Of a stretch of 64,000 bases of DNA, positions 13,619-41,364 are shown in pieces. The stretch is taken from sequence record OR449013; one strand, given 5' to 3'. How positions within the stretch are numbered: the stretch's first letter is position 1; each line of letters begins with the position of its first letter. This DNA comes from Escherichia phage Mangalyan. Both the position numbers and the translations under genes were made by a program. The notes under the pieces are model-generated. The model saw nothing but the letters and a program-made list of their open reading frames with translations, had not been told where the DNA came from and did not search any database.

Positions 13619-13735
13619 ATGTCTACAGGCATTTATAAAATTTGCAAGTGTGGTTGTCGTTGCAATCTTCGTTGGTGCAAGGCACTGGACGATTTTATTT
13701 GGCATTGTCCTGAATGCGATGCAGAGTACTTATAA
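13619..13735 (+). CDS. small Cys-rich (zinc-ribbon-like) peptide, 38 aa
   Basis: perfect SD AAGGAGG 7 nt before ATG; 8 Cys in CKCGCRC...CPEC; below the track's 60-aa cutoff. Confidence 0.4.
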   Translation: MSTGIYKICKCGCRCNLRWCKALDDFIWHCPECDAEYL

Positions 13736-13886
13736 GCATAAGGGGTCGAAATGCGGAAATCTATCAAGAAAATCAAGATAAAATTGTTAGCACTGAAGCG
13801 TAAGTATAAAAAGTTATACGGCTTCATCAAATGGACTTTTATAAGTTTATCTTGAATAGAAGCACACCACAGAAGAGAGGTTCCTT

Positions 13887-14123
13887 ATGGTAGGTGTCTG
13901 TGTAAAAGCTAACAGATGGTTTACATTCGGCAAGGATTACGAAATTATCTTTCATTCGGACAGAGCCACAACAGTAGAAAGCGATGATGGGTGCTACTGG
14001 TTCGTTAGTTACCAGGGTGATGGGTATTATAGATCTACTGATTCCAGAGGGGAAGAAGCTGTTTTCTTAGATAGAGCTTATTGTGGGCCTGAATATCCCT
14101 ACCTCAAAGAGGGTAAGGAATGA
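13887..14123 (+). CDS. hypothetical protein
   Basis: 78-aa ORF; stop overlaps nrdG start. Confidence 0.45.
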   Translation: MVGVCVKANRWFTFGKDYEIIFHSDRATTVESDDGCYWFVSYQGDGYYRSTDSRGEEAVFLDRAYCGPEYPYLKEGKE

Positions 14124-14593
14124 ATGTTGTTAATATTATAGAGTGTAGCATGGTTGACGGCCCAGGCATTAGGACAACGGTGTTCTGTTCTGGTTGTCCA
14201 CATCACTGCGTTGGTTGCCAAAACAAAAGTGTTTGGTCACCCGCTAAAGGGGAACCGTTAACAAATGACACAATTGAGAGTATACTTCACTCTATAGAGC
14301 CGAAACATATTACTGGCGTTACATTATGCGGTGGCGAACCTTTAGCGCCTTACAATATCGATGGTATGTACTCGATCATTCTCGCTATCCGTGAACGCTT
14401 CGGCAACACAAAAACTATCTGGGTGTACACAGGGTATTTGTTTGAAGAAGTCCCAGGTTATATTAAAGATAGTGTCGATTACATTATGGATGGTAAGTAC
14501 GAAAAAGATAACCCCACCAAAAAACCATTCAGAGGTAGTGATAACCAAAGAATGTTTAAAAAAGTATCAGGCGGTTGGGTTCAGGTAGACTAG
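14120..14593 (+). CDS. nrdG: anaerobic RNR activating enzyme (radical SAM)
   Basis: 157 aa; CSGCPHHCVGC (Cx3Cx2C radical-SAM cluster); adjacent to nrdD. Confidence 0.75.
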   Translation: MNVVNIIECSMVDGPGIRTTVFCSGCPHHCVGCQNKSVWSPAKGEPLTNDTIESILHSIEPKHITGVTLCGGEPLAPYNIDGMYSIILAIRERFGNTKTIWVYTGYLFEEVPGYIKDSVDYIMDGKYEKDNPTKKPFRGSDNQRMFKKVSGGWVQVD

Positions 14594-14596
14594 CTG

Positions 14597-14626
14597 TTGA
14601 CAAAGCTTTGTTTAGATAGGTATAAT
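14597..14626 (+). promoter_or_regulatory. sigma70-like promoter
   Basis: TTGACA, 18-nt spacer, TATAAT. Confidence 0.6.
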
Positions 14627-14657
14627 TATCGTAAAATGAAAGCAGAGGAGGTGCCAA

Positions 14658-14771
14658 ATGGCTAAAAAAGCCTTGAAGAAGGCGTACAAAAAAGAAATTG
14701 CGCTTGAGCTCAAGAAAAAACACAAGCGTGAAAAGAAACATCATGAGGATGAAGAGGAGCTGCAACAGTGA
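14658..14771 (+). CDS. small highly basic peptide, 37 aa
   Basis: SD GAGGAGG before ATG; MAKKALKKAYKKEIALELKKKHKREKKHH...; stop overlaps next GTG start. Confidence 0.4.
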   Translation: MAKKALKKAYKKEIALELKKKHKREKKHHEDEEELQQ

Positions 14772-15118
14772 CACAAGAACGTATCGATTTGGCTAATAAG
14801 TTTGTAGATCTCATTTTGCCACGGTTAGTTACTCAACATGCAGACGCTATTTCTACTAATCTTGATGGCTTACGCCTAATGCTGAATCGCACAGATGACC
14901 CTCGCATTCGGGCTGATTTAGAAGCCTCTGCCAACAAACTGGAAAAGTTCTTGCAAGTAGATACGCAAGAAGCCTTACACAAGATTATGGTGGAAGGTTT
15001 CTCTAAAGAATTTACCATTAAAGAGCTTAAGGAGCTGATCCACCAAGAAGAGATGAATATCCGAGTTCAGGCTGTTGCAAGCAGCATGGAAGCGGCTATT
15101 GAAAAACTGTTGCAGTAA
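14768..15118 (+). CDS. hypothetical protein
   Basis: 116-aa ORF, GTG start overlapping upstream stop. Confidence 0.45.
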   Translation: MTQERIDLANKFVDLILPRLVTQHADAISTNLDGLRLMLNRTDDPRIRADLEASANKLEKFLQVDTQEALHKIMVEGFSKEFTIKELKELIHQEEMNIRVQAVASSMEAAIEKLLQ

Positions 15119-15156
15119 AAGTACTTGGCACATCTCAATCTGAAAGGAGTCCCAAC

Positions 15157-15945
15157 ATGGGTCGAGCTAAAGAAACAAAACGCATGCGTGATGAAGCTAG
15201 AGAGGCTCGCAAATCTGATCGCCTGCGCAAGGCTGCTGAGAAATTTGCTGACGAAAGAGAGCACACCGCTCCAGCTCTCCGACCAATGAATAAGAAGCAG
15301 CAAAAGTATCTTGATTATCTAGGGTCACGTAAGATTATCATTGTAAACGGTGTGTTTGGATCCGGTAAGACATTCATGGCATCTGCATATGCAGGTGATC
15401 TTCTGCGTAAGAACGAGATTGATAAGATCATTGTTGCACGTCCTTACGTTCAGACAGGAAAGACTTCAGGATTTAAACCTGGAAATGCAATGCAGAAACT
15501 GTGGCCCTATCTTCGAAGCATGATGGACACGATTTGTCGTCGTGTTGGCAAAGGTGCTTTTGCCGCAATGCTGGGAGACGGTCAGAACAGTCGTATCGAG
15601 ATTTGTGAAGTTGAAAGCATTCGTGGTCGTAGTTTCGATGAGCGATGCTTTGTCCTGATTGACGAGGCACAGCAAACTAACCCTGAAGAAATGTTGTCAA
15701 TTATCACAAGGATCTCTGATCAGGCCACCCTTGTAATCATGGGCGATAATAGCCAACGTGACATCCCTGGTAAATCTGGACTTGCATGGGTGACGGATTT
15801 CTTTACTCGTCATCCAGATCCTGAGGTTGGAATGATCAGCTTTGATAGTCCAGACGATGTCGTTCGTTCCGGATTGGGTCGTCAGATTGCACTCAATCTT
15901 ATTGAGGATCGTGCAAATCATATTTGGACCCCTGTTTCCGAGTAA
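15157..15945 (+). CDS. phoH: PhoH-like ATPase
   Basis: 262 aa; Walker A VNGVFGSGKTF; Walker B-like CFVLIDEAQ. Confidence 0.8.
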   Translation: MGRAKETKRMRDEAREARKSDRLRKAAEKFADEREHTAPALRPMNKKQQKYLDYLGSRKIIIVNGVFGSGKTFMASAYAGDLLRKNEIDKIIVARPYVQTGKTSGFKPGNAMQKLWPYLRSMMDTICRRVGKGAFAAMLGDGQNSRIEICEVESIRGRSFDERCFVLIDEAQQTNPEEMLSIITRISDQATLVIMGDNSQRDIPGKSGLAWVTDFFTRHPDPEVGMISFDSPDDVVRSGLGRQIALNLIEDRANHIWTPVSE

Positions 15946-15989
15946 CACAGAAGGGTGGTTATTCCACCCTTAGATATCTAAAACAGTTG

Positions 15990-16018
15990 TTGACAAACAG
16001 GTAAGCTTTAGATATTAT
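15990..16018 (+). promoter_or_regulatory. sigma70-like promoter
   Basis: TTGACA, 17-nt spacer, TATTAT; preceded by a GGGTGG-ttatt-CCACCC hairpin. Confidence 0.55.
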
Positions 16019-16043
16019 TATCGGACAAGGAGAAGGAGATAGT

Positions 16044-16355
16044 ATGGCTACAGTACAAGAGAAACTGAATAAAATATACTGCCTGTTTGTCTATAACGGC
16101 GAGACAATTCTGGCATATAAAGGATCCAAGAATGTATGGATCAAGGACAGTGGTGGTAATATAATCAACTTAGCGTTGCTACGTGAGCGCCGACACAGAT
16201 TCTTTATCGAGTCTCGGATTATTGAAAGCAGCACCTGCTACAGAACAGGCGATAAAGTAATTGTTGACAATGATACGTGGTATGTGGTAGACTGGCAATC
16301 ACTGAGCTGTGATGCTTCTGACAATCGTAAGTACTCTATAGTGATTGCTAAATAA
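16044..16355 (+). CDS. hypothetical protein
   Basis: 103-aa ORF with SD AAGGAGA. Confidence 0.5.
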   Translation: MATVQEKLNKIYCLFVYNGETILAYKGSKNVWIKDSGGNIINLALLRERRHRFFIESRIIESSTCYRTGDKVIVDNDTWYVVDWQSLSCDASDNRKYSIVIAK

Positions 16356-16415
16356 AGGTAAATGTGAATCAGGTTTAAATAAATAGCTTTCAACTTCCAA
16401 TATTAAGGATCTCTC

Positions 16416-17465
16416 ATGAATTTAACACCTCGCAGCACCATGGTACACGGCATGAAAGAAAAACAGAACGGTTTCGAACCTATGAGTAATAAAATGTTTG
16501 GTATGCCGGGGGGTATTATGGAAACATATAGCTACCCAACACCTGTTGTTGACCACGTTCTTTATATCGACGATTTGGAAGACTTACAAGATCATATGTC
16601 TCGTCTGCAGACGATCCGTATGGCTCAGCCGGAAGAAAGCATTCGGGTGATCATCAATAGCCCAGGGGGCTGCGTGCACATTGCAATGGCTTATTTGCAG
16701 GCATTCCGCGAGTCTCAGGCAAGCGTTGTTGCACACGCTGAAGGGATGTGCTGCTCGGCAGGAACAATCTTATGGCTGGGCTGCAAAGAACGAACTGTGG
16801 CTCCGGACACAGAATTTATGTTCCACTACTATCAAGGTGGCACCTATGGTAACGGTGTGAACATGAATACCCAGATCAACTACTGGAAGAAACGTTTTGA
16901 ACGCCTGATCGAAAAATACTACGGTGGGGTGTTAACAGAAGATGAGATCGCATCCATCACAGCTGGCGGTGAAGTGTGGTTAGATGGAGAAGAACTGGCA
17001 TCTAGAACTGGTGCTATCATTCTGGACGATGAAAACATTCAGCGCATTCAGAATGGACAGAAACCGAAAAAGCTTTTGGCAAAAAGTGATGAAGAAGGTG
17101 TGCTAGGCGAAGCAGGCCTGCCAGAGATTCACCAATGCACATCTCTGGACGAGCTGGTTCATGCTGTTGAGTCTGCAAAAGCAAATGGTATGAAAGATGA
17201 TGTTCACACTGTGTTCCTGAATCTGCAGATGGAAAGTGGCGAGACCGTCCGGATCGCCCTGGGTGAAATTACTTCAGAAGATCTGCAGCGATTCTCTGTC
17301 GTCGAACTTCAGGATATTCTGTCTCAATTGAAGACTACTCTGAACGGCGGTGAAGAGGTTAAGGTGAAAGACAAGACCCGCAAGCGTCTGATGGACAATA
17401 TCATTAAAACAGCAAAAGAGCTCAATGAAAAAATCCTGGGTGCAGGAATTGTCGAAGAAGCTTAA
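16416..17465 (+). CDS. ClpP-like (S14) serine peptidase with C-terminal extension
   Basis: INSPGG; GMCCSAG (catalytic Ser context); FMFHYYQGG (His context); ~150-aa acidic C-terminal extension. Confidence 0.6.
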   Translation: MNLTPRSTMVHGMKEKQNGFEPMSNKMFGMPGGIMETYSYPTPVVDHVLYIDDLEDLQDHMSRLQTIRMAQPEESIRVIINSPGGCVHIAMAYLQAFRESQASVVAHAEGMCCSAGTILWLGCKERTVAPDTEFMFHYYQGGTYGNGVNMNTQINYWKKRFERLIEKYYGGVLTEDEIASITAGGEVWLDGEELASRTGAIILDDENIQRIQNGQKPKKLLAKSDEEGVLGEAGLPEIHQCTSLDELVHAVESAKANGMKDDVHTVFLNLQMESGETVRIALGEITSEDLQRFSVVELQDILSQLKTTLNGGEEVKVKDKTRKRLMDNIIKTAKELNEKILGAGIVEEA

Positions 17466-17479
17466 ACATTAATTCTAAA

Positions 17480-17500
17480 GCCCTCTTCGGAGGGCTTTTA
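17480..17500 (+). terminator. rho-independent terminator
   Basis: GCCCTC-ttcg-GAGGGC followed by TTTTAT. Confidence 0.6.
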
Positions 17501-17516
17501 TGATCTGGAGATTTGC

Positions 17517-18050
17517 ATGACTTGTGCTAGAAAACCTGATGAACAACGTAACGCCTACGATGAGTATGTGACACCGGAGTGGTGTGCAGAAGGGCTGTAT
17601 GACCTTATTCCGTTCCCAGAAGACTGGACCTACTTAGAGCCTTGCAGGAATAGTGCCTCAGGTGTGTTCTACTCCCGTATGCCGTTAGGATCTGCATGGG
17701 GAGAAATACAAGAAGGTGTTGACTATCTGAATACAGAATACAACCATGTTGACTGTATTATCACCAACCCACCATACAGCCTGGCTCGTGAGTTTGTAGA
17801 CAAGGCGTTGAAAGATGCTGACGTAGTTATTATGCTTTTGCGTCTTAATTTTCTGGAAAGCAAAGCCAGATTTGAATGGTGGCTTGATAATGCACCTACT
17901 ACTGTGATCACAATATCTAAGCGTCCATCATTTCAATCAAACGGCAGAACTGACGGGCAAGCATATGCATATTTTGTGTGGGATAAGAAAAACCGTTTAG
18001 ACTTGCCGCCGTTTATGTGGTTGGCACCCCCAGAGGTAGACCTGAAATGA
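17517..18050 (+). CDS. N6-adenine methyltransferase-like protein (paralog of 1084..1902)
   Basis: IITNPPYS (motif IV); N-terminal YVTPEW parallels YYTNPGY of the other copy. Confidence 0.45.
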   Translation: MTCARKPDEQRNAYDEYVTPEWCAEGLYDLIPFPEDWTYLEPCRNSASGVFYSRMPLGSAWGEIQEGVDYLNTEYNHVDCIITNPPYSLAREFVDKALKDADVVIMLLRLNFLESKARFEWWLDNAPTTVITISKRPSFQSNGRTDGQAYAYFVWDKKNRLDLPPFMWLAPPEVDLK

Positions 18051-19835: not shown

Positions 19836-20072
19836 ATGAGTATAGATGTTGCGCTAATAGGTTACCTGGTAATAGCCGTTATAACGGCAGTATTCTTGAC
19901 AGGTGTATGCATCGTGTCCACACGAAGGGTGAAGTTTGATGATTTTATCACTATCATCACTGCTGCACCTTTTTGGCCTGTTGTTATCTTCATCGTGATA
20001 ATGTGCCTGGTGGATTACTACAAGAATACCCGTAAGGAGAAAAAGGAGAGTAGGGATGGAGACTGCACCTAA
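19836..20072 (+). CDS. small membrane protein (two predicted TM helices)
   Basis: hydrophobic segments LIGYLVIAVITAVFLTGV and FWPVVIFIVIMCLV; SD AGAGAGG. Confidence 0.45.
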   Translation: MSIDVALIGYLVIAVITAVFLTGVCIVSTRRVKFDDFITIITAAPFWPVVIFIVIMCLVDYYKNTRKEKKESRDGDCT

Positions 20073-20291
20073 AACTGTTTATACTGTTCTTAAAGAGATT
20101 GCGTTCTACGCAGATCTTAGCCAGGCACCTTTATGGGAAAAGAGCATGTATTTAAAATGGTGCATTAATTTAGGGAGATCTTCCAGTGTTTCAAGCCATG
20201 TTTATTGAAATGCTATCTGGGGTATTGTTACTGGTAACCATCTTAGGTGGTGCAGTTCTGATGTATAACTATCTTGAAAAAGGAGACAGCA

Positions 20292-20477
20292 ATGGTAAAA
20301 AATAAATCTTTAGAGCAGGCTGAAAACCTTCTCCACGAGCTGGTAAAGGAGTGGAAAGTTGAATACTCAGATTTTAATGCAAGAGAGGGGGAAGATTATT
20401 GGCCTACGGAGCGCTCAGAGGGAGAGTGGTATCAAGATTTCATAGAATGGTTATATCAGACGTGTGATGAGGGGTGA
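20292..20477 (+). CDS. hypothetical acidic protein
   Basis: SD AGGAGA 5 nt before ATG. Confidence 0.4.
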   Translation: MVKNKSLEQAENLLHELVKEWKVEYSDFNAREGEDYWPTERSEGEWYQDFIEWLYQTCDEG

Positions 20478-22029: not shown

Positions 22030-22124
22030 CTATGATTGCATCAATATTAACGTTTATGGGTGGCGTGGCATTCGGATTCATTGTTTGCCTGTTTATAGTG
22101 ATTATGTCTATGCGAGGCTGAATT

Positions 22125-26803: not shown

Positions 26804-27090
26804 TGAAAGATCTGGTTAAGATTAAGATTAAAGATACCAATGGGGAGCTCAGCCATTTTGGAATTAATGATGGTGACGAGCTGATCGCACACCTGCCTAC
26901 CAAGGAGGTTGTAAGCAAAGCAGTTGCCGGAGAAGAAGCTGCAATGCAGGCTGCAGGTGTGGATGAAAACTATGTAGCTATGTGCATGTGCCGAGATCAG
27001 GTTGTTCTGTATAAAGCGTATAGACCAAACGGAGCCACGGAGTGGCTTGTATTCCGACCCGAAGGATATGAAATCTTAGAGGCACTATGA
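26803..27090 (+). CDS. small acidic protein, MKxK-related
   Basis: SD GGAGGAAG; MKDLVKIKIKD...GYEILEAL. Confidence 0.45.
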   Translation: MKDLVKIKIKDTNGELSHFGINDGDELIAHLPTKEVVSKAVAGEEAAMQAAGVDENYVAMCMCRDQVVLYKAYRPNGATEWLVFRPEGYEILEAL

Positions 27091-27179
27091 TAAATCTTGC
27101 CAAGGTTGCAACGGCACTGTTAATTATTTGCTGGTCAGTAACCTTAACACTGTGTCTTGTATTTCAGTGAGGTGCTTGT

Positions 27180-27443
27180 ATGAACATCCTGATGTGGGTT
27201 GTAGCAGTGGCGTTTGTTGCATGTTTTTGCTGCTGGGTTGCGGTGAGGATTTCTGTAGCTACCCTTCGGAAGTTGGGGTTCTCAGAGTGGGATATTAATA
27301 TCCTTTCTTTTCGCAATGAAACAATCTCAGCCGCCCTGCTCTGTAAGAAATTCAAGTGGGAACCTTGCGAGGTCATGAACTATCTAAGAACGGGAGATAT
27401 CCCTGAAAGATTTAAAAAAGTTCTTGACGACAAGGATAAATGA
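27180..27443 (+). CDS. small membrane protein
   Basis: N-terminal ILMWVVAVAFVACFCCWVAV; SD GTGAGGTG. Confidence 0.45.
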   Translation: MNILMWVVAVAFVACFCCWVAVRISVATLRKLGFSEWDINILSFRNETISAALLCKKFKWEPCEVMNYLRTGDIPERFKKVLDDKDK

Positions 27444-27471
27444 TAGTATAGTGACTAACAAGAGGTGAGGA

Positions 27472-27612
27472 ATGACTGATTTTACTGAAGCTTTAATGAT
27501 GGCCTTGTCTGTTTTAGCGCTATCGGTGTGTTTTGGGGCGTTATTCACATCTCTGGTTAAAGTTTTACATACAGTATTATTACCCAAGGAGCGCAGTAAT
27601 GACGAAGATTGA
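27472..27612 (+). CDS. small membrane peptide, 46 aa
   Basis: SD AGAGGTGAGGA before ATG; hydrophobic ALMMALSVLALSVCFGALF; below track cutoff. Confidence 0.35.
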   Translation: MTDFTEALMMALSVLALSVCFGALFTSLVKVLHTVLLPKERSNDED

Positions 27613-28580: not shown

Positions 28581-28880
28581 ATGTCTACAAAGGCGGCTAA
28601 ATACTCCTACATGCCATCAACCTCTGCAGAGGTAGACTTTAGTTTCGATGTGTTTCCACTGTTTGAGGTGGTTCTGGCATACCCAACAATACTATCTACT
28701 CCTGAATCACTTGTGCCTGTTAAGTTGCAGAACGCTATGCATTCCATGCACTACAACAACAAATGTAGGCACAGATGGTGTCAGGACGAGGAAAAAGATT
28801 TGGATAGTTTGAGAGATTTTGACAGTCACCTTTTGACACCTTTCAGCTACTCCAACCTTGATAAGCCTTCGTGGGTATAG
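28581..28880 (+). CDS. hypothetical protein
   Basis: ATG 28581 with SD GAGGTGGA; track 28569..28880. Confidence 0.45.
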   Translation: MSTKAAKYSYMPSTSAEVDFSFDVFPLFEVVLAYPTILSTPESLVPVKLQNAMHSMHYNNKCRHRWCQDEEKDLDSLRDFDSHLLTPFSYSNLDKPSWV

Positions 28881-29093: not shown

Positions 29094-29122
29094 TTGACAC
29101 ATTACCGATCCAGTGATAGTAT
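29094..29122 (+). promoter_or_regulatory. sigma70-like promoter
   Basis: TTGACA, 17-nt spacer, TAGTAT. Confidence 0.5.
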
Positions 29123-29154
29123 CCACACATAGTTTGTAGAATATGGAGTACACA

Positions 29155-29244
29155 ATGAGAACATTGTCCGAAGTTTTAGTGGTGATCCTGATGATCATTA
29201 CGTCCATAGCGGCTGTTGCCGGAATACTCACGGGTGGAACATGA
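29155..29244 (+). CDS. small hydrophobic peptide, 29 aa
   Basis: SD GGAG before ATG; MRTLSEVLVVILMIITSIAAVAGILTGGT; stop overlaps next ATG (ATGA). Confidence 0.35.
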   Translation: MRTLSEVLVVILMIITSIAAVAGILTGGT

Positions 29245-29453
29245 TAAACACACATGCATCTGAAGAGACATCCAAAGGAGTGACTATATGTCCCTTGGCT
29301 GAGCCAGTGAAAGAGGAAAACTTAGATTCTGAAGATTCTCCATCTTCGCTCCAGGTAGATCCTGAGGCTGATGACCTAACGTGGGAAGACATCGTAGACA
29401 TCTGGTTCTCCATTATGCCTGAGCACGAAGAGTTCAGAGGTGGTAGACTATGA
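29241..29453 (+). CDS. hypothetical acidic protein
   Basis: 70-aa ORF coupled to upstream peptide. Confidence 0.4.
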   Translation: MINTHASEETSKGVTICPLAEPVKEENLDSEDSPSSLQVDPEADDLTWEDIVDIWFSIMPEHEEFRGGRL

Positions 29454-29790: not shown

Positions 29791-31319
29791 CACACAATTA
29801 GTTGCCCGGCTAAAGTGCTGGGAGCACCCATAACACATCTTTCAACTAAATTTTCTACCACCACAATCACTTACCTCCCACACATGACTGTTTGCTTGTT
29901 TAGTGAGCAGTCATGCCTTGACATTCTTGCCTATCCTGATAAAATTAAGTTCTTCTCTTTTCTTTTACCGAGTAATTCGGGTTTTCTGTTCTCTTCGGTT
30001 TGAAGGGGTATGGAGATACACCTGAGTGAACAGGGTGAACAACCGAACCATTGGCTATGGCATTAGCATGGCGAAGCGGACGGGTGACGAAAGAGGGGCC
30101 GGAGGACACCAGTCACTGCCATATGATATATGGGTGATAACCTGAAGAGTCTGAATAAGTGTTTAAGTACCAGTCAGAGGAAAAGGTGAATGGTAGCCGA
30201 AGGGGGAGGGGGGTTACCTGCTTCTGTAAACATGCATCTGAAATACTACTTTAGATAACCTGAACCTGCCTTTCTGACAAATATTCCCTATTAAACTTGA
30301 ATTATTTATAGAAAATACCACAACACCACTTAAGTCTTTGATTTTACACACAAATCTTACAGATATTAAACCTCTCTATTTAACATACCTGTAACATATA
30401 CTATACTCCACCTGTCTGATCAATTTCCCCAACTACATCCCCATATTTTCCCTGTCTGTACTACCCCTGCCCCGCCGGGAGTCCCGTCATATCTGGCTTT
30501 CCAGCAAATATCACACCCACAAATATCATCACCTGAAGAGGGTTTCATCCCATAATACATGCCTTACCTGAAGAGCGCTTCATACACCACATAAATTTTT
30601 TAATTGACCCCCTCCCCGCCGCCGGAGAGGTTGGCTTTTCCCACACAGACCTGGAGAGTCAGCCAGAAATATCTGAAGAGGGTCTAGTTCTGCCCTGTCA
30701 TAAGCGGTAGCGACTGGAGTGCTGCTAGGCGGACGAAATGGGAATACTTCTCATTCTTATAACAATTCTCAAATATCGAGGCAGTGAGGCAAATTAATAG
30801 GTGAGGCCGTTCACACAGTGGCACAACATTTGCAACCTATCTTGTGGGATTGAATGAGAATACCTATCATTGTGAGAACTGTTATCATTACGGGCAATTT
30901 AACATAATACCCATTATGCGCACCACTGGCGATACATACAGGGATTGATAACATGGGTTACTGTTTACGCACATAACAATTATATTTCTTACTATTTGTG
31001 TGGGATATAGTTAGCAGCCGATAGATTAGATATTAACCTGCAGACTTCTGACCGTCCAGACGTCTAAACGCCCACACACCAAGGATTATACATACACTCC
31101 TGAATGTAAACAGGGCCGCAAAAATGCTACCATACAAGCTTGTAAATTTTTCATGCAGCACTTGACAAAGAGGAGAAAAACTTGTCTGACATAATGTGAC
31201 CTAACTGACACAACATGACACTTTTACACACCTATTAGTTTACACACTGGATTGTTTACATTCCTGATTGTTCACATGCTAACCATTTACATGATTGACT
31301 GTTTACACACCGATAATCA

Positions 31320-31339
31320 GCCATGCCATTCGTTTGCAT
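31320..31339 (+). repeat. 20-nt direct repeat GCCATGCCATTCGTTTGCAT (copy 1)
   Basis: identical 20-mer recurs at 31551..31570. Confidence 0.7.
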
Positions 31340-31397
31340 GACAATAATTATACATGACAATAATCGCACTGATCATAATTAGCATGACATAATATAA

Positions 31398-31437
31398 AAG
31401 CAGGGCAACTATTAGCAGATCTATAGTTGCCTTGCTT
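31398..31437. repeat. inverted repeat, 15-nt arms around a 10-nt spacer containing AGATCT
   Basis: AAGCAGGGCAACTAT ... ATAGTTGCCTTGCTT (1 mismatch); GGCAACTAT/ATAGTTGCC recurs at ~31464 and ~31563. Confidence 0.65.
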
Positions 31438-31550
31438 GTTATGTCATGATTAACTAAATACAAGGCAACTATGATCTGATTAATAGTTTGCAGACAAACT
31501 ATCACGGGGGTGATGGTTACTGCTTTTATATTATGTCGCGACTCCGTCGC

Positions 31551-31570
31551 GCCATGCCATTCGTTTGCAT
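31551..31570 (+). repeat. 20-nt direct repeat GCCATGCCATTCGTTTGCAT (copy 2)
   Basis: identical to 31320..31339. Confidence 0.7.
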
Positions 31571-32176
31571 AGTTGCCTTATTGTTACAGATAAAATAATT
31601 GTATTGTTAATTATTTCTTATCTTTCTATTAGTCATCTAATGATTTCAGTTAATATAGTAACGTACAGTAAACATTAGACGACTAAAGATTTCTATGCTT
31701 ATGGTAACCTAACGTGACAATTCCAGACTGTTTACGAAAAATGTTGACACCTGGGCCGATTTATGTTATGCAGTTTACACGAATAATTATTTTATGCAGG
31801 TATTGACTATTCCGTTATTCTATGGTTGGAATAAATGCTTAGCAGGCTATAGAATGGCGAGCGTACGTAAATTCTGAGATCTGGCGGCTATAGTTATACT
31901 CGATTTTTCACGTAGAAAACGCTTTTGTAGTTATGTAAGTGTATGACTTATAAAGTTGACAAGCTATTGAATATATGCATCAGGTTAAATTTTGTGCAAA
32001 TGCTGCATTACGTGCAATTTTGGAAGGAAAAACGTGTAAAAATGGCCCTGCTACCACACAATGAAAAATTATGCAATAGTTATTTTATATGTATGTTTGT
32101 ACAGTGTGTGGGATTGATGGCTCGTCAATTATTCCACTTGCCAGGTAGGGCCGTTTATGGTAGGGGGAAGAGCAGA

Positions 32177-32202
32177 CAAAAAGAAAGGGGCCTAAGCCCC
32201 TT
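32177..32202 (-). terminator. rho-independent terminator closing the - strand gene block
   Basis: on - strand AAGGGGC-ttag-GCCCCTT followed by TCTTTTTGTCT. Confidence 0.55.
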
Positions 32203-34093: not shown

Positions 34094-34228
34094 TTAAAAC
34101 AAGGTGCCAACCGTTTCCAATAGATCACTGACCATCAGGACAATACTGATCAGCACATATCTAACCATAAGGGGAAAGAGCGCCAGCGATCCCGCCACGA
34201 TCCCCATGGTAATAATTATCTTTCTCAT
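34094..34228 (-). CDS. small hydrophobic membrane peptide, 44 aa
   Basis: ATG 2 nt after upstream stop (coupled); MRKIIITMGIVAGSLALFPLMVRYVLISIVLMV; below track cutoff. Confidence 0.35.
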   Translation of the reverse strand: MRKIIITMGIVAGSLALFPLMVRYVLISIVLMVSDLLETVGTLF

Positions 34229-34830: not shown

Positions 34831-34935
34831 TCAACCGATACCGTGGGAAGATAGGATCATGTTAGCCATAGTTGCAACCAATCCAACCAATAATGCCAGG
34901 CCAACTACTACAACCGTGAAAATTTTTTCTAACAT
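34831..34935 (-). CDS. small hydrophobic membrane peptide, 34 aa
   Basis: SD GAGGG before ATG; MLEKIFTVVVVGLALLVGLVATMANMILS; the antisense track ORF 34859..35104 is rejected. Confidence 0.35.
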   Translation of the reverse strand: MLEKIFTVVVVGLALLVGLVATMANMILSSHGIG

Positions 34936-35012
34936 GATTCTACCCTCAGTAATGGCGGGAAGTATTCCCGCGCTATGTAGTACACTTTACCAGATTGTTG
35001 ACTGTTGTCAAA

Positions 35013-35626: not shown

Positions 35627-35806
35627 TTAACGATAATCATCATATGCTTTATTTACCTGGCGAATATAACATTCAAAAGCCAGATCAATAGATTTATATT
35701 CACGGATATACTCACCATAGGAAACCACATACATTTCTATAGCTTCCTCATATGCGAGGAGAATAGAATCTAAGCCTACGATCTCAGTTTTTGCAATAAT
35801 AGCCAT
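35627..35806 (-). CDS. hypothetical protein, 59 aa
   Basis: SD AGAGGA before ATG; fills an otherwise empty 350-nt gap; just under track cutoff. Confidence 0.45.
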   Translation of the reverse strand: MAIIAKTEIVGLDSILLAYEEAIEMYVVSYGEYIREYKSIDLAFECYIRQVNKAYDDYR

Positions 35807-35881
35807 GATTTTTATCCTCTTTGTGGTTGGTGGGGCTTGTTGCCCCCTTTGATTTATATACTACAGTTTTATATGGTCATG

Positions 35882-36115
35882 TCAACACTTTTCAAAAAAT
35901 TTTTCTGCCGTGATATTCTTCCCGGTAGGGTTCGCTACTTTCAAAATTTTATCATGCACTGGACGCCCAAAAGAATAAGATCCGTATACAGTAAACCAAT
36001 AATCTCCGTCAGGCTGTACTATTACCGCCGCATATGGTACGCCTTTTTCGTTTTTGCTGACAAAATAGATCACATTACCATTAATAGCCTCAGCGCGTTT
36101 AATTTGTTCCATCAT
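35882..36115 (-). CDS. hypothetical protein
   Basis: 77-aa ORF, SD AGAGAGG. Confidence 0.5.
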   Translation of the reverse strand: MMEQIKRAEAINGNVIYFVSKNEKGVPYAAVIVQPDGDYWFTVYGSYSFGRPVHDKILKVANPTGKNITAEKFFEKC

Positions 36116-36467: not shown

Positions 36468-36690
36468 GGTTTTAACTCCTATCTATCCGGTTAATGATTT
36501 GGGGCCGCCCCCTGATGCGTCCTATTATCCATATTGTGGGGCTTGATGCAAGTACTTCTTTAAAAATTTTTTAAGCGCCTTGGGGCCGCTGTAACGCTAA
36601 AATAATAAAGACCATGCAACCGCATAGCCTTAATGTGATTATATCGCTGCAGGCCCTGCTAGGGGCCTTATTTTGCATCATTTACCGGAA

Positions 36691-36990: not shown

Positions 36991-37036
36991 GCCTATCACT
37001 CCTTGTTAACTGCGTGGTATTTTAACAGGGTTTAAA

Positions 37037-37081
37037 TTTACTTTATTGATGGCCTTGGAGTCAAGGCCATCTAAAAATAAA
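37037..37081 (-). promoter_or_regulatory. conserved ~45-nt promoter cassette, copy 1
   Basis: - strand TTTATTTTTAGATGGCCTTGACTCCAAGGCCATCAATAAAGTAAA: AT-rich upstream, 9-bp hairpin carrying TTGACT, then GTAAAT/TAAATT. Confidence 0.5.
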
Positions 37082-37083
37082 TT

Positions 37084-37284
37084 TTACAGGCCTACAATCT
37101 CTTTAATTCGTTTTACTGCTGCCTCAGCGCCTTGAGGGTAAAAATTATGGTAACCAATCACGCGAGTGATACTAATCGCCGTTTGATGATCTTCATAATC
37201 ACCTTTAAAGATTTCTTGACCGTCAATCAGCACGGCAATTTTTTCTTCTTTTTTGAAGTTAATAACGCGGATATTGTTGCTCAT
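37084..37284 (-). CDS. hypothetical protein
   Basis: 66-aa ORF, SD AAGGAG. Confidence 0.5.
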   Translation of the reverse strand: MSNNIRVINFKKEEKIAVLIDGQEIFKGDYEDHQTAISITRVIGYHNFYPQGAEAAVKRIKEIVGL

Positions 37285-37425
37285 TTTGTTTCTCCTTTCT
37301 GGTTTTTGTGGTGGTGGGGATTAGCTCCCCGTTGATTGTTATTATCCACATTCCGGACCGGATTGCAACACCCCGGAAGAATTTTTTTTTTTTTAAAGAT
37401 AGGCCCCCATGATCGGGGGCCGTTC

Positions 37426-37545
37426 TTAGTTACTTACAGCGATAAAGTACATCCCTACGCCTAGCAATATTTCAAGGGCGATAATCTCAAGCCATACCAT
37501 AACGCGGCGCACCTTATCGGTGCGGGGCTTATCCTTGGGTGTCAT
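37426..37545 (-). CDS. small membrane peptide, 39 aa
   Basis: SD GGGGGAG; ATGA overlap with upstream stop; MTPKDKPRTDKVRRVMVWLEIIALEILLGVGMYFIAV. Confidence 0.4.
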   Translation of the reverse strand: MTPKDKPRTDKVRRVMVWLEIIALEILLGVGMYFIAVSN

Positions 37546-37787
37546 CGTCTCCCCCTTCCCTTCTGGTAGTAGTGACGTGGTTTACAATGGCCCCCAGGAG
37601 TATTATCACCACGCACATTACAAGAAAAATTATCTCTGTCGTTGTTCGATCCATTGTTATAAAATTCCTTAAGATCAGGCCTGAAAATAAAGCTTTCATT
37701 ATTGAATCCATCCCGCCAGGCGGCTGGCCTCAAATCTTCACTAAATGGATTAATTAACGTGGTATTATTTAAACGGCTGGCCCACAT
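37542..37787 (-). CDS. hypothetical Asn/Gly-rich protein
   Basis: ATG 37787 with SD GAGAGGA; stop overlaps downstream ATG. Confidence 0.4.
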   Translation of the reverse strand: MWASRLNNTTLINPFSEDLRPAAWRDGFNNESFIFRPDLKEFYNNGSNNDRDNFSCNVRGDNTPGGHCKPRHYYQKGRGRR

Positions 37788-38136
37788 ATTTTCTATTCCT
37801 CTCAAATAAGCGATCCGCCTCAGTTAAACAAATCTCATGGGCGTGATCTCTGGTTTTAGCTTCATCGAAAACCTGTTGTGCAAGGCTGCAACGTAGGGAG
37901 ACTGGAAGATCACTATAATAGGCGTTGACAAACGTTTGAGCGTCGTACAGGTCGGAAAATACTTTACCCTTTCTATTATTCCCCTTGTCAACAATTGCAA
38001 GGATAACCAATACAATAGTTGCAACCACCCCCAGGAAAATAGATATAATAAACCATAAAAAGGCGGATCTTCCCATCTTGCCAGCGATCCAGGCGTTAAA
38101 CAAGGCAACCAATACAGCCAAAATAATAAATTCCAT
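37765..38136 (-). CDS. membrane protein (two N-terminal TM helices)
   Basis: ATG 38136 with SD AAGAGGT; MEFIILAVLVALFNAWIAG...FLWFIISIFLGVVATIVLVILAIV. Confidence 0.5.
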   Translation of the reverse strand: MEFIILAVLVALFNAWIAGKMGRSAFLWFIISIFLGVVATIVLVILAIVDKGNNRKGKVFSDLYDAQTFVNAYYSDLPVSLRCSLAQQVFDEAKTRDHAHEICLTEADRLFERNRKYVGQPFK

Positions 38137-38200
38137 TCTATGTACCTCTTTTACAGTTCTGATTAACAATAAGGCGGCAAATATGCCGCCTGTTACCTGA

Positions 38201-38581
38201 TTAAAAATTATCGCCGTAAATCTTTCCGCTTTCTACCCATACCACCACGCGAGGCATACTATCCCACACGTCTTGTTTTAGATTGAGCGCGTGCAATTCT
38301 TCGGTGGTGCTCATACCGGGCACGGGCTGATTGTATACTGCAAAACGACCGCCTGCATAATCATAGGCCAGGGTTAAATCACACTGGATCATCTTTTTGA
38401 TCATGGCATTAAGCATGGCGTTAGCCGCATATTGGTCACGTTTTAAAGGCAACTCTTTGATTAGTTTGCGATAGTTTTCGATATGGTCGCACACTGTTTC
38501 ACGCGGAAGATCTTTCATATCCTCGCGAAAGGTAACCAGGTTAAACATAACGGTGTCAATAGCCTTGGTAGTGTTTTTCAT
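38201..38581 (-). CDS. hypothetical protein
   Basis: 126-aa ORF, SD AAGAGGA; GC hairpin in 5' leader. Confidence 0.5.
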   Translation of the reverse strand: MKNTTKAIDTVMFNLVTFREDMKDLPRETVCDHIENYRKLIKELPLKRDQYAANAMLNAMIKKMIQCDLTLAYDYAGGRFAVYNQPVPGMSTTEELHALNLKQDVWDSMPRVVVWVESGKIYGDNF

Positions 38582-38635
38582 GATTTTATCCTCTTTGTTT
38601 TGTGTGGGGGCAAACGTCTTGCCCCCTTGAGTTTT

Positions 38636-38663
38636 AATATAGCAGGTTTTTAGGTTATTGCAA
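38636..38663 (-). promoter_or_regulatory. candidate sigma70-like promoter
   Basis: - strand TTGCAA, 16-nt spacer, TATATT. Confidence 0.45.
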
Positions 38664-38671
38664 CACTTTAT

Positions 38672-39295
38672 TTATGAAAAAGTCATCTCGCCATATTCAT
38701 CCACATCAAACCGCCAATCATTGGCCTCGATAAGGCCGATCAGGTTTTCGGTAGTGAATTGTTCAAGATAGGCCCCCTCCAGGTCTACGTAAACCTTGCG
38801 GGATAGCTCCCGTACCGTCTCGGTGATCAGCTCTTCCAGGTCTTCCACTTTGTTTTCTTGTTTGGCGGTCAGATCTAGCCAGGTGGTATCAATGTATCCG
38901 CTTACAGTGTTTTCATGGCTGTAATGGCTGTACTTGTCGCGTTCAACACTGGCCGATAACTCGCCATCGTGCATTGTGCCGAACAAGTGACGAATTGATC
39001 GGAACTTGGTCAGGGCCTTGACTTTACGCAAGAATTTTTCTAAGTCTACATTTTCAGCACTAATCGATGCGCCATCGCCTTGACACCAAAAGCCGGACCA
39101 ATGTACTTCGGTATCTTCAAGGCCGTACTCTGGAAAAACTTGTTCTTTATAGTATTCAATTACATTTTCTGCAAAAAAGTTATCCCCGCTGTGTTCTTCT
39201 CTTTCGCGTACCATTTCAATGGCTTTTTCTTTTTGTTCGTCGGTCAGCACGTCGAAAGATAAATTGTAACCTGTGGTAATGTTAACGGTGGTCAT
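38672..39295 (-). CDS. hypothetical acidic protein, 207 aa
   Basis: SD AGGAG; conserved-looking HWSGFWCQGDGASI block; family not recognised. Confidence 0.5.
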   Translation of the reverse strand: MTTVNITTGYNLSFDVLTDEQKEKAIEMVREREEHSGDNFFAENVIEYYKEQVFPEYGLEDTEVHWSGFWCQGDGASISAENVDLEKFLRKVKALTKFRSIRHLFGTMHDGELSASVERDKYSHYSHENTVSGYIDTTWLDLTAKQENKVEDLEELITETVRELSRKVYVDLEGAYLEQFTTENLIGLIEANDWRFDVDEYGEMTFS

Positions 39296-39369
39296 GATAT
39301 TTTCTCCTGTTTTCTTTGTTAGTGGCGGGAAGTTTTCCCGCCTATGTTTTTAATTATACTTATCAAGAT

Positions 39370-39630
39370 TTACTTGTCAACACTATTTTTTAAATTATTG
39401 TGGCGCAAAATGTTTAAAATCTCCTCAACGTCATCAACACGGCGGCAATTTTTAAACGCTACCAATTGCCCCAAGATTTTAATTACTGGGCGGCCTTGCC
39501 AGTGACCTTGAAGAAAGCGCGCTTTAACTTTATCGGTGGAACTATCACGCCACCAAATAGCCTTGTTGTTGCAGTAGTAAAAATTATTCAGGATAACATC
39601 AACCTTATCAAAATTTTTTAATTTACGCAT
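39370..39630 (-). CDS. hypothetical basic protein
   Basis: 86-aa ORF, SD AAAGGAG. Confidence 0.5.
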   Translation of the reverse strand: MRKLKNFDKVDVILNNFYYCNNKAIWWRDSSTDKVKARFLQGHWQGRPVIKILGQLVAFKNCRRVDDVEEILNILRHNNLKNSVDK

Positions 39631-39840
39631 GGCGTTTACTCCTTTCTCTCTTTGATGTGGTTAGTATAGCTAACCTGTTTAAGATGTCAAGCTTTAAATA
39701 AAATCACTGTCAATAATATTTTTAACGCCATAAAACGGTCCTGGGCGATGTTTTCAGGTTAAAGGGGGCGATTTTGCATAGGTGGGGGCCTTTTTGGCGC
39801 TTACAGGGCCAACCAGGGGCGCTATTCGTAGGATAGAAAC

Positions 39841-39865
39841 AAAAAGCCCCGCACAATGGCGGGGC
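39841..39865 (-). terminator. rho-independent terminator
   Basis: on - strand GCCCCGC-cattgt-GCGGGGC followed by TTTTTGTTTC. Confidence 0.65.
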
Positions 39866-39873
39866 GTTGGTTG

Positions 39874-40071
39874 TTATTTGTCTTTATGGCGGTACCGTTC
39901 CGCCTGTCGTTCACGTTCCAAAAGTAGGCTGGGCAATTTACGATCATAATGATTGCGCCAGATCTTCCCAAACCTTTTTGGCTTATTCAGTTTATTGTTA
40001 CGCTGGCGGCGTTCCGGCAGCTCTTCGGAATCATGAGGGCGCTTTACAATTTTCTCGAAATTAATTTTCAT
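39874..40071 (-). CDS. small highly basic protein
   Basis: 65 aa, Arg/Lys-rich; SD GGGGGG. Confidence 0.45.
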   Translation of the reverse strand: MKINFEKIVKRPHDSEELPERRQRNNKLNKPKRFGKIWRNHYDRKLPSLLLERERQAERYRHKDK

Positions 40072-40415
40072 ATATTCCCCCCCTTGCTAACTTCAATATT
40101 GGCCTGAATGGCCCGGATACGGCGCTTTATAACTTCCTGATCTGTGTGATCGTATCCCCAAAAGTCCACAATTTTTGCGCCCCCCGCCTCCAGGCGGTAT
40201 AGTGTTTCCTGCATTTTGTAAGCCGGGATCGGTCGCGGTGTTACTTGGTCACCTTCTTTATTTTTATACTTTATAATATAATCTTCGTTATCGTTAAATG
40301 TCCAAAATGGATATTCTGCAAGGGCGGTACTTCCTCTTTCCTTTTTATCCTGGATCTTGTTTACAATTAAAGCCGTAGCAATAGCGCCAATAATAAAACT
40401 AGCCCCGCTAATCAT
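40068..40415 (-). CDS. membrane-anchored protein
   Basis: ATG 40415 with SD AAGGAG; N-terminal TM ISGASFIIGAIATALIV. Confidence 0.45.
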   Translation of the reverse strand: MISGASFIIGAIATALIVNKIQDKKERGSTALAEYPFWTFNDNEDYIIKYKNKEGDQVTPRPIPAYKMQETLYRLEAGGAKIVDFWGYDHTDQEVIKRRIRAIQANIEVSKGGNI

Positions 40416-40489
40416 GTACTTTCTCCTTTCATTGTATTGATAAACTATCTTTATAGATGGCCCTGCAACCAGGACCACCGAAAAAATAA

Positions 40490-40735
40490 CTATTTCACAA
40501 TGCCTACAAAACAGATTCCGCCTTCACCTATATAGGCAATATCGGTAATTTTATAATTTGTCAAGATCCGCGTGTTCAGCTCATTAATAAAATCGGTCAT
40601 CGCGTTGGTGTAGTTGTCTTCCGTATCTAAGGCATAATCCCAGGTGTAAACCTTTTTACGTCCGAAGCCTTTTACCATGATACGGGCGCTTTTGGTGTTG
40701 GTAGGGGCATAATATTTGGTGATTAGTGCTGCCAT
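40490..40735 (-). CDS. hypothetical protein
   Basis: 81-aa ORF, SD AGGAG. Confidence 0.5.
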   Translation of the reverse strand: MAALITKYYAPTNTKSARIMVKGFGRKKVYTWDYALDTEDNYTNAMTDFINELNTRILTNYKITDIAYIGEGGICFVGIVK

Positions 40736-40778
40736 GGTTTTAACTCCTATGCATTAGTTCAGTGTTAACAGTATAAAG

Positions 40779-40823
40779 TTTACTTTATTGATGGCCCTGG
40801 TGTCAAGGCCATCTAAAAATAAA
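40779..40823 (-). promoter_or_regulatory. conserved ~45-nt promoter cassette, copy 2
   Basis: near-identical to 37037..37081; -35 here is TTGACA. Confidence 0.5.
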
Positions 40824-40824
40824 T

Positions 40825-41166
40825 TTACTCGTTTTCTTCCAGTTCTGCAAGCTCTTCTTTCACTTCTTCCAGCTCTGTCTGCAATTCTTGGTACTCTTCA
40901 TCGTCCTCAATATCCAGGCTGTCGATGTAGTCGCTAAATCCGCAGCGGTAAGCGATAGGATCTAACTCCTTGAGGATACGCGACGGAAGAAAAGAAATGT
41001 TTCCGATCATAATTTCGCCATAGATCTCGTCTAGCCATTCATCATAGTTTTCGTCGTACTTGTCCTCGTCGATTTCAAAGTTATCGATCTTGTTCTCAAG
41101 GTCTGCGATCTGTTTTTTCAGCGCGGCGATCTGAATAGCTTTTTCTGCGGCGGTCATAGTAGTCAT
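40825..41166 (-). CDS. hypothetical acidic coiled-coil protein
   Basis: 113-aa ORF, SD AAGGAGA. Confidence 0.5.
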   Translation of the reverse strand: MTTMTAAEKAIQIAALKKQIADLENKIDNFEIDEDKYDENYDEWLDEIYGEIMIGNISFLPSRILKELDPIAYRCGFSDYIDSLDIEDDEEYQELQTELEEVKEELAELEENE

Positions 41167-41216
41167 GGTGTTTTCTCCTTTTTGTGTTTTGGGAAGTTTT
41201 CCCGTTTACGTGTTTA

Positions 41217-41244
41217 AGTATACCGATTTGGGTTAGCTTGTCAA
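41217..41244 (-). promoter_or_regulatory. sigma70-like promoter
   Basis: - strand TTGACA, 16-nt spacer, TATACT. Confidence 0.5.
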
Positions 41245-41364
41245 TTAAAAATTTAAGAAAAATTTTGCAAAACTGTTGGCGCTACCCATCAACATTTGCG
41301 CCAGGATGTACCCAATGATGCAAACGATGATGGTTACCTTTGTGTGCTGGCGTGTAGTGCTCAT
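41245..41364 (-). CDS. small hydrophobic peptide, 39 aa
   Basis: SD GGAGGC 6 nt before ATG; MSTTRQHTKVTIIVCIIGYILAQMLMGSANSFAKFF. Confidence 0.35.
   Translation of the reverse strand: MSTTRQHTKVTIIVCIIGYILAQMLMGSANSFAKFFLNF

Follow-up and report, generated by a model that had tools for sequence, protein, structure and literature searches.

Whether the shortest open reading frames (ORFs) of a phage genome are genes, and what their products might do, is the question raised by a stretch of 64,000 nucleotides from Escherichia phage Mangalyan (sequence record OR449013), which we refer to throughout as the window. An initial annotation, made from the sequence alone, had proposed nine well-initiated micro-ORFs of 29 to 59 amino acids (aa) between positions 13619 and 41364, here called A to I in order of position, and had suggested that the small membrane peptides among them could be inhibitors of host membrane proteins or holin- and antiholin-like factors. 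Many host-modulating and anti-defence activities are known to reside in small phage proteins, and it is the short ORFs that annotation most often gets wrong. We consider it probable that the nine are independent, real small protein genes of Vequintavirus accessory arrays, and that their products act as small modulators. Our analysis supports the set as real and selected, corrects two probable frame errors in the RefSeq entry for rV5 (in gp109 and at the N-terminal end of gp157, which is extended), documents that many GenBank relatives lack annotation of E, F, D and I, and flags a conditional fitness signal in the genes G, F and E. It leaves known phage biology unchanged and narrows the search space for function.

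The micro-ORFs and their setting

The window belongs to a Vequintavirus (rV5-like) coliphage: megablast searches with its 13-30 kb and 30-43 kb segments returned more than 100 Vequintavirus genomes at 92-95% nucleotide identity. Genes lie on the plus strand up to about 30 kb and on the minus strand from about 32 kb, with a gene-free zone between them. The accessory arrays, comprising about 90 mainly small genes with σ70-type promoters, flank this 2-kb non-coding zone of convergent transcription. All nine micro-ORFs were found where the initial annotation had placed them; each translates cleanly, and each lies on the locally transcribed strand (four on the plus strand and five on the minus strand).

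On the plus strand, A (13619-13735; phrog_20137) encodes a 38-aa peptide between nrdD and nrdG with seven cysteines (CxCxCxC…C…CPxC), one fewer than had been counted originally. B (14658-14771; rV5 ORF118/gp113, phrog_7670) is a highly charged peptide of 37 aa with a Lys-rich N-terminal part and an acidic C-terminus. C (27472-27612; rV5 ORF156, phrog_16755) is a 46-aa peptide with a single predicted transmembrane (TM) segment, an acidic N-terminus and a C-terminal tail that carries K/R and then acidic residues, and D (29155-29244; phrog_34195, a family of 29 aa) is a single-TM peptide of 29 aa. On the minus strand, E (34094-34228; rV5 ORF170, phrog_16005) encodes a 44-aa hydrophobic peptide with a conserved mid-membrane Arg/Lys, F (34831-34935; rV5 ORF173, phrog_14631) a 34-aa single-TM peptide with an invariant C-terminal half, ATMxNxILSSxGIG, and H (37426-37545; rV5 ORF181, phrog_13629), the last gene of its operon, a 39-aa TM peptide of the tail-anchored type with a basic N-terminus. 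I (41245-41364; rV5 ORF193, phrog_16391) is likewise a 39-aa single-TM peptide, with a conserved C-terminal AKFFLNF. The 59-aa ORF G (35627-35806, minus strand; rV5 ORF174, phrog_9374) is present and coding as proposed, and its product is predicted to be an acidic soluble mini-domain (β4-α).

Conservation and selection

The comparison with relatives was based on a panel of 11 Vequintavirus genomes (rV5, PMBT16, LL12, Bas59, five unannotated GenBank records and two IMG/VR contigs, one of these about 85% identical to the window) and two Stephanstirmvirinae genomes. A search of IMG/VR for the locus with two anchor proteins gave one divergent Vequintavirus-like contig and unrelated loci, and the panel was hence drawn from GenBank. 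The initial annotation had staked the micro-ORFs on their conservation in close relatives, and in every panel genome that bears the respective locus (7-13 sequences each) all nine retained start and stop codons and had no internal stops.

Selection acts on the annotated frames. Pooled in-frame ratios of nonsynonymous to synonymous variation (pN/pS) were 0.09 for A, 0.08 for B, 0.33 for C, 0.12 for D, 0.54 for E, 0.40 for F, 0.11 for G, 0.14 for H and 0.17 for I, compared with about 0.4-5.9 in the two shifted frames. Variable alignment columns, pooled over the nine, were distributed 69/36/130 over the three codon positions (chi-square p = 2.5e-13), with distributions of 0/3/9 for D and 7/1/13 for I. 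Judged on this comparative sequence evidence, the nine micro-ORFs are real, conserved protein-coding genes under purifying selection.

As a control, all 390 ORFs of at least 25 aa in the 12.5-43.5 kb region were scored in the same comparison, 266 of them being 25-59 aa long. The gaps left by well-supported genes house 86 of those 266, and from this background the nine separate clearly: few gap ORFs share with them the combination of transcribed strand, intactness in relatives and low pN/pS. Short open frames are nevertheless frequent, as the 390 in 31 kb illustrate, and the nine could in principle have arisen by chance between genes or mirror coding on the complementary strand. Low scores do occur for ORFs antisense to real genes, for example 13633-13830 on the minus strand over A (pN/pS 0.11), and the strand call therefore rests on ribosome-binding sites, orientation and operon context; moreover, the codon-position bias of C, E and H is not significant for each taken singly. 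However, across 112-235 records no relative has a broken frame for any of the nine, pN/pS contrasts clearly between frames, Shine-Dalgarno (SD) motifs are correctly spaced, and orientation agrees with that of the surrounding operons. The truly non-coding 30-32 kb zone behaves differently, its ORFs having pN/pS of about 1 and frequent indels. As for the antisense ORF over A, it spans A, the gap that follows and part of the next small ORF, and it uses a TTG start in the direction opposite to local transcription. We give chance frames and antisense artefacts next to no weight as an explanation. Overlap with RNA genes, which we also considered, was rejected, Rfam and ARAGORN finding no RNA gene anywhere in the window.

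Translation signals and operon position

Strong SD sites and coupled overlaps with neighbours had been claimed for several of the micro-ORFs. The duplex formed with the anti-SD at the 3' end of 16S rRNA was indeed strong for A and B (dG −13.3 each), I (−11.6) and H (−10.8), with the motifs GAGGAGG in B, GGGGGAG in H and AAGGAGG in I. Values for C (−7.1), F (−6.1), D (−5.9, for the ATG at 29155) and G (−5.8) are unremarkable, the median being −7.1 for 33 well-supported long genes and −2.2 for all 1066 ATGs in the region, of which just 13% have a dG of −6 or lower. E (+0.3) has no SD, and for it the claim fell; it starts 2 nt past the stop of an upstream 94-aa gene (TAA-CC-ATG), and this arrangement indicates translation by re-initiation after that stop. 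Coupled overlaps were borne out for four of the nine. The stop of B overlaps the GTG start of the next gene (116 aa), C and its downstream neighbour share 14 nt, D is joined by ATGA to a 70-aa ORF at 29241-29453, and H is joined by ATGA to the 81-aa gene upstream of it. The start of D is preceded by a GGAG SD at 29155, and no such motif precedes the alternative ATG at 29143 (33 aa) in the window; phrog_34195 aligns to residues 5-33 of this longer form. The start codon of C is ATG in the window and GTG in most relatives.

The 81-aa gene upstream of H (37542-37805; rV5 ORF182) is itself a curious case. Frame-specific selection is not clear there, two other overlapping frames scoring about equally (pN/pS 0.47-0.57), and the sequence would fit either a fast-evolving or a mis-called gene.

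B, C, D, F and G are all first cistrons placed just behind σ70-like promoters. The promoter of C lies at 27424-27452 on the plus strand (TTGACG-17-TATAGT, 10/12 matches) and that of D at 29094-29122 on the same strand (TTGACA-17-TAGTAT, with an extended −10 TG), and those of F and G are on the minus strand at 34984-35011 (TTGACA-16-TAAAGT, with TG) and 35858-35885 (TTGACA-16-TAGTAT); in rV5, promoter P118 is annotated directly upstream of B. Since B, C and D also overlap the start of the next gene, and E relies on re-initiation after its upstream gene, B, C, D, F and G could be regarded as regulatory leader or upstream ORFs, in which translation matters, through coupling or attenuation, and the peptide does not. 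Leader peptides would be expected to drift freely in amino acid sequence, but these five are constrained at that level, with pN/pS from 0.08 to 0.4 and B, D and G at the low end (0.08, 0.12 and 0.11, respectively). The overlap of B, C and D with the downstream start leaves no room for an attenuator. G is confidently predicted to form a folded domain, F and E retain their TM cores and C-terminal motifs through extensive nucleotide divergence, and G and F move between unrelated phage lineages in which their downstream neighbours differ. A purely regulatory role thus appears improbable, and we prefer to regard these ORFs as genes for functional peptides.

Previous annotation and distribution

The initial annotation considered the micro-ORFs to have been missed by a 60-aa cutoff. 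This holds for the list of ORFs on which it was based, but not for public annotation: the nine are already annotated and catalogued, and are not new. Table S3 of the rV5 genome paper (Kropinski et al. 2013, PMC3606486) lists ORF118, 156, 170, 173, 174, 181 and 193, which correspond to B, C, E, F, G, H and I, and designates five of these seven (ORF156, 170, 173, 181 and 193) as membrane proteins with '1 TMD', that is, one transmembrane domain (TMD). ORF118 is given there as 37 aa, and ORF173 with a longer start than F (PMC3606486). A and D are annotated in LL12, PMBT16 and the BASEL phages, and full-length matches link each of the nine to a PHROG family of its own (E = 1.8e-18 to 6.5e-39). Annotation in databases is uneven: many GenBank records leave E, F, D or I without annotation, and we therefore describe these four as inconsistently called.

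Only A and D are mis-framed in the rV5 RefSeq record, NC_011041, where gp109/ORF114 (L001 452-679) and gp157/ORF162 (L001 16051-16356) lie over them. ORF114, a 75-aa 'membrane protein' over A, is interrupted by stops in 8 of 9 compared sequences, and ORF162 begins with 31 codons that extend it across D in a wrong frame, one that is broken by an indel in phage C5. From these disruptions, both ORF114 and the ORF162 extension are probable annotation errors.

By tblastn and annotation mapping, the micro-ORFs have the same neighbours in rV5, LL12, PMBT16, Bas59, Bas57 and Bas54. Their rV5 orthologs agree with them in length, synteny and sequence (56-100% aa identity), but the window carries different alleles of E and F, at 68% and 56% identity to rV5. 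A tblastn search of 50,697 phage records matched A in 121, C in 117, D in 113, H in 118 and I in 112, essentially every Vequintavirus, and on this distribution these five are genus-core genes. E (164 records), F (154) and G (235) extend into the Stephanstirmvirinae; matches to F include Justusliebigvirus and Phapecoctavirus, and G is also found, at about 73% identity, in 350-kb 121Q-like jumbo phages. This pattern indicates that E, F and G are shared horizontally among coliphages. The same search gave no match with B, owing to low-complexity masking; B is nonetheless unbroken wherever the panel covers its locus (8 genomes).

The list of micro-genes is itself incomplete, as three further ORFs are similarly supported. 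These are 20198-20305, a TM peptide of 35-39 aa corresponding to rV5 ORF131 (pN/pS 0.10); 20056-20208, a 50-aa ORF that overlaps the end of the rV5 'putative holin' ORF129 (pN/pS 0.33); and 13751-13855, a very basic 34-aa ORF that follows A (pN/pS 0.20). Two hydrophobic micro-ORFs without a PHROG family, 22032-22121 (29 aa) and 27087-27170 (27 aa), are uninterrupted throughout the panel, but substitutions in them are too scarce for the frames to be separated; the former is annotated in PMBT16.

Membrane peptides

The six peptides described as hydrophobic in the initial annotation, C, D, E, F, H and I, do each contain a single hydrophobic stretch of at least 17 residues, with a mean Kyte-Doolittle value of 2.3-2.9, and are on this evidence bitopic membrane peptides. 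Across their alleles, membrane or C-terminal cores are invariant and flanks drift. The TM segment of H, VWLEIIALEILLGVGMYFIAVSN, is invariant and its N-terminus variable; alleles of E at 50-68% identity retain length, hydrophobicity and the core FPLMV(R/K)(Y/H)VLIS…VSDL; and the two alleles of F, at 56% identity, have the C-terminal motif, length and hydrophobicity in common. The invariant cores include polar residues, namely two Glu in the TM of H, Arg/Lys in that of E, and ATMxNxILSSxGIG in F. We infer that such cores make specific helix-helix contacts rather than serving as a generic anchor.

If so, C, D, E, F, H and I would insert in the inner membrane, where they would adjust a larger membrane protein, of the host or of the phage, by binding it through sequence-specific helix-helix contacts. 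Small inner-membrane regulators that bind larger membrane proteins exist in bacteria, as in the pairs AcrZ-AcrB, MgtS-MgtA and MgrB-PhoQ. Small early proteins of phages that act on host targets include λ Kil and T7 Gp0.4 (PMC11323111). The six membrane peptides resemble these AcrZ/MgtS/MgrB-type regulators and phage proteins in size (29-46 aa), in having a single TM helix with a conserved, sequence-specific core, and in being dispensable under standard conditions. They have no sequence homology to them, and the likeness is one of possible mode of action, not of family. They may plausibly act on host proteins as small modulators.

Dispensability and the lysis question

Transposon-insertion sequencing (Tn-seq) of Vequintavirus Bas54 (MaxBurger, MZ501093) has been reported in a 2025 preprint on HIDEN-SEQ (10.1101/2025.11.20.689424), which allows the orthologs of the micro-ORFs to be assessed. 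Orthology was confirmed by tblastn, except for C (0144), which was assigned by size and synteny. Counting TA sites hit, the preprint's data place I (0107; 6/6), H (0117; 11/11), G (22/22) and E (0128; 8/9) among non-essential genes, F (0125; 7/9) in the 'reduced fitness' class, and C (9/12) and A (6/9) in the 'intermediate' class, and D (5/5) and B (1/2) have too few sites for classification (10.1101/2025.11.20.689424). None of the seven scorable orthologs is essential in Bas54.

These data bear on the suggestion that some of the membrane peptides are a holin, an antiholin or another lysis-timing factor. The suggestion has some appeal, the peptides being small and hydrophobic like the phage-encoded holins and antiholins λ S105/S107, T4 T/RI/RIII and pinholin S21. 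H lies two genes downstream of a 123-aa membrane protein labelled 'putative holin' by BASEL, and the holin of rV5-like phages has never been experimentally identified, the rV5 paper and BASEL naming different candidates. The BASEL candidate, bas54_0115, has its homolog at 37765-38136 in the window; the candidate of the rV5 paper is a different protein, of 78 aa with 2 TMD. However, a typical holin has a charged C-terminus and 2-3 TMDs, or a single TMD combined with a large periplasmic domain, whereas these peptides have one TMD each within 29-46 aa and no charged C-terminal domain, their C-terminal flanks holding 0-3 K/R residues at a net charge of −2 to +1. Holins are also co-located and co-regulated with lysis genes, expressed late and needed for plaques. 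No part of the window corresponds to the endolysin region of rV5, the spanins of Bas54 are at the terminase operon (bas54_0001/0002), and the promoters of the micro-ORFs are of the σ70 type, unlike the late motif described for rV5. Insertions are tolerated at the TA sites of H, I, E and G as given above, viable insertions occur also in D, C and F, and even the BASEL 'putative holin' is dispensable (27/28 TA sites hit). The micro-ORFs are separate short ORFs, not alternative starts of a holin as an antiholin might be, and they match no Pfam or PHROG lysis family; none of the nine, nor either holin candidate, carries a PHROG lysis label. Finally, A, B and G, three of the nine, are not membrane peptides. 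The proposed holin or antiholin role thus fails on context, architecture, promoter type and dispensability, and we regard it as very unlikely.

Host-dependent fitness of the G-F-E block

Bas54 was also compared between hosts, and here a subset of the micro-ORFs behaves differently. In the clinical isolate CFE311 relative to K-12, the block bas54_0123-0129 is depleted, with values of −2.85 for G (q = 0.0012), −2.34 for 0126 (q = 0.018), −2.24 for 0127 (q = 0.025), −2.42 for E (q = 0.095) and −2.25 for F (q = 0.24) (10.1101/2025.11.20.689424). The G-F-E block, dispensable on K-12, is thus depleted 4-7-fold on CFE311, a result on which the authors of the preprint do not comment; H, I, C, D and A are unchanged in the comparison of K-12 with the clinical isolate. 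The sheet 'Data S6' of Extended Data Table 8 of the preprint is titled as K-12 versus CFE303, but the command line uses the CFE311 library, and the depletion of bas54_0140 matches CFE311; the sheet therefore seems to be mislabelled.

The gene bas54_0140 offers the nearest precedent. Tn-seq and a deletion showed that the phage needs it to counter DS-28, a predicted defence system of E. coli CFE311 (10.1101/2025.11.20.689424). Its homolog in the window, at 28581-28880, encodes 99 aa, is 99% identical, corresponds to ORF160 and lies two genes upstream of D; being this 99-aa ORF, it was rejected as one of the nine. It resembles the micro-ORFs in its place in the array, its promoter type and its nature as a small hypothetical protein, and it is non-essential on K-12 and conditionally required in a clinical isolate, the depletion of the G block being of the same kind but weaker. 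It differs from them in its length of 99 aa and in being paired with DS-28, whereas no defence system has been paired with any micro-ORF. The genes flanking I in the window, 41445-41840 and 40825-41166, also show host-dependent effects in Bas54: bas54_0106, immediately upstream of I, shows strong depletion in the screen on CFE311 (log2FC −3.18, q = 0), and bas54_0108, immediately downstream, is reported as depleted in CFE303.

G has a confidently predicted β4-α fold (predicted local distance difference test, pLDDT, 95.3) and a net charge of −5, and it had no match in the PDB by Foldseek. Its β-sheet and C-terminal helix fit the fold of an AP2/integrase-arm-type DNA-binding domain, but a basic, DNA-contacting surface and homology are lacking, and that assignment was not made: the protein is acidic, Pfam gives no match, and identity to hits is 6-16%. 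G would instead be a folded acidic domain, most likely one that binds a host protein, and would contribute to fitness in particular hosts only, as an anti-defence or host-range factor does. That G, alone or together with F and E, is an unrecognised host-specific counter-defence or host-range factor is a tentative possibility; such a factor would be shared horizontally among Vequintavirus, Stephanstirmvirinae and 121Q-like jumbo coliphages. B, in turn, would be a charged helical peptide at the head of a transcription unit with phoH.

Taken together, the products of the nine micro-ORFs are most likely host-specific accessory modulators, small specific binders that matter in particular hosts or under particular conditions. 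Each would be a small binder or modulator, neither an enzyme nor a lysis protein. Several points weigh against this reading. C, E and H lack a significant codon-position bias individually, as noted, and the pN/pS of E and F is just moderately low. Our literature search did not find a Vequintavirus transcriptome or Ribo-seq study, mass-spectrometry data for the rV5 virion list none of the nine, and early expression is deduced from promoter sequence alone. Pfam has no family for any of the nine, and none is homologous to a characterised protein in Pfam or, for G, by Foldseek against the PDB. The structural model of A is of moderate confidence (pLDDT 71). The depletion of the block in CFE311 could reflect polar effects on one gene, and q is below 0.05 there for G, 0126 and 0127 only. 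In our view only two leads deserve pursuit: the host-dependent depletion seen for the G-F-E block, and the constant linkage of A to the class III ribonucleotide reductase (RNR) operon.

Peptide A and the class III RNR module

The seven cysteines of A (C9, C11, C13, C15, C20, C30 and C33) are invariant in 9/9 sequences, H29 is not conserved, and the peptide carries two conserved Cys-x(1-2)-Cys knuckles of the kind found in zinc fingers. Tentative matches to its modelled fold are zinc modules, and A is probably a zinc-finger-like mini-protein. The systems closest to it are the 48-aa anti-σG protein CsfB/Gin of B. subtilis and zinc-ribbon or treble-clef modules. An exhaustive representative search for homologs of A gave just tiny close relatives and Cys-rich repeat noise.

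A would be co-expressed with nrdD and nrdG, between which it always lies. Its identity stays at 92-100% through exchanges of the nrdG allele and of the genes in between, and it survives both the nrdG allele swap and the loss of two intervening ORFs. The module (13619-14593, and loci L005, L015, L017 and L021) has two architectures. In the first, A is followed by a 34-aa ORF, a 78-aa ORF and nrdG allele 1; in the second, the stop of A overlaps the start of a strongly divergent nrdG allele 2 (ATGA). The two arrangements suggest cassette exchange beside homing-endonuclease sites.

Its invariable position, its conservation despite nrdG swaps, the coupled expression implied by the ATGA overlap in type-2 genomes and its seven cysteines with tentative zinc-module fold matches could mean that A belongs to the phage class III RNR as a functional, accessory third component, perhaps one that partners NrdG with zinc or an iron-sulfur centre. 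Against this, NrdD has its own Cys4 ribbon and NrdG its own CxxxCxxC cluster, so that nothing obvious is missing, and no homologs of A adjoin RNR genes outside the genus. The PHROG label 'ribonucleotide reductase' reflects guilt by association. In the aerobic Tn-seq, A is 'intermediate' but nrdD and nrdG are fully dispensable, which hints, from the small sample of nine TA sites, at a role not confined to RNR. A dedicated RNR function for A is therefore doubtful, and we favour for it, as for the others, a role as a small modulator. A more specific proposal, that A supplies the zinc site of NrdD in trans, was rejected: NrdD retains CLKC…CPEC before RVSGY, and A is thus no replacement for that ribbon.

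The nrdD gene of the window is split. One part, 9448-10311, holds the ATP-cone and positions 1-154 of the NRDD profile, and the other, 11124-12368, holds NRDD 163-562 and Gly_radical; a 177-aa HNH endonuclease ORF (10533-11066) lies between them. The BASEL annotation of the Bas54 homolog joins two exons into one CDS around an internal homing endonuclease, which amounts to an intron; no group I intron was found in the window at the Rfam gathering threshold. Between nrdD and A is a 386-aa gene of mobile-element type (12406-13566), assigned to endonuclease/HNH by PHROG and to a DUF4379 treble-clef plus T5orf172 by Pfam. It is absent at this position in rV5 and LL12, and PMBT16 has a smaller ORF there.

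Other features of the window

Two further signals adjoin the micro-ORFs on the minus strand. An intrinsic terminator with an 8-bp stem (7 GC pairs) and a T-rich tail directly follows H (37402-37421), and a near-consensus σ70 promoter (41217-41244; TTGACA-16-TATACT, 11/12) begins right after the stop codon of I, where the rV5 annotation places promoter P192.

The gene-free zone in which the plus- and minus-strand arrays converge extends over about 2.2 kb (approximately 30000-32200), and no ORF in it is coding-like. It includes an AT-rich part at 31.2-32.0 kb (30-35% GC), a perfect 20-nt direct repeat with copies 231 nt apart (31320/31551) and a perfect 18-nt inverted repeat (31386-31403/31520-31537). 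In Bas54, Tn-seq gave zero insertions in the homologous stretch of about 2 kb, for which the authors suggest an important function (10.1101/2025.11.20.689424). The zone could be a replication origin or a regulatory locus.

Lastly, about 20 GenBank records of the MG0656xx series labelled "UNVERIFIED: Campylobacter phage" (e.g. L014, L015, L017 and L020/L021) are Vequintavirus genomes, 92-95% identical to the window. Their host labels are probably wrong, or the samples were mixed.

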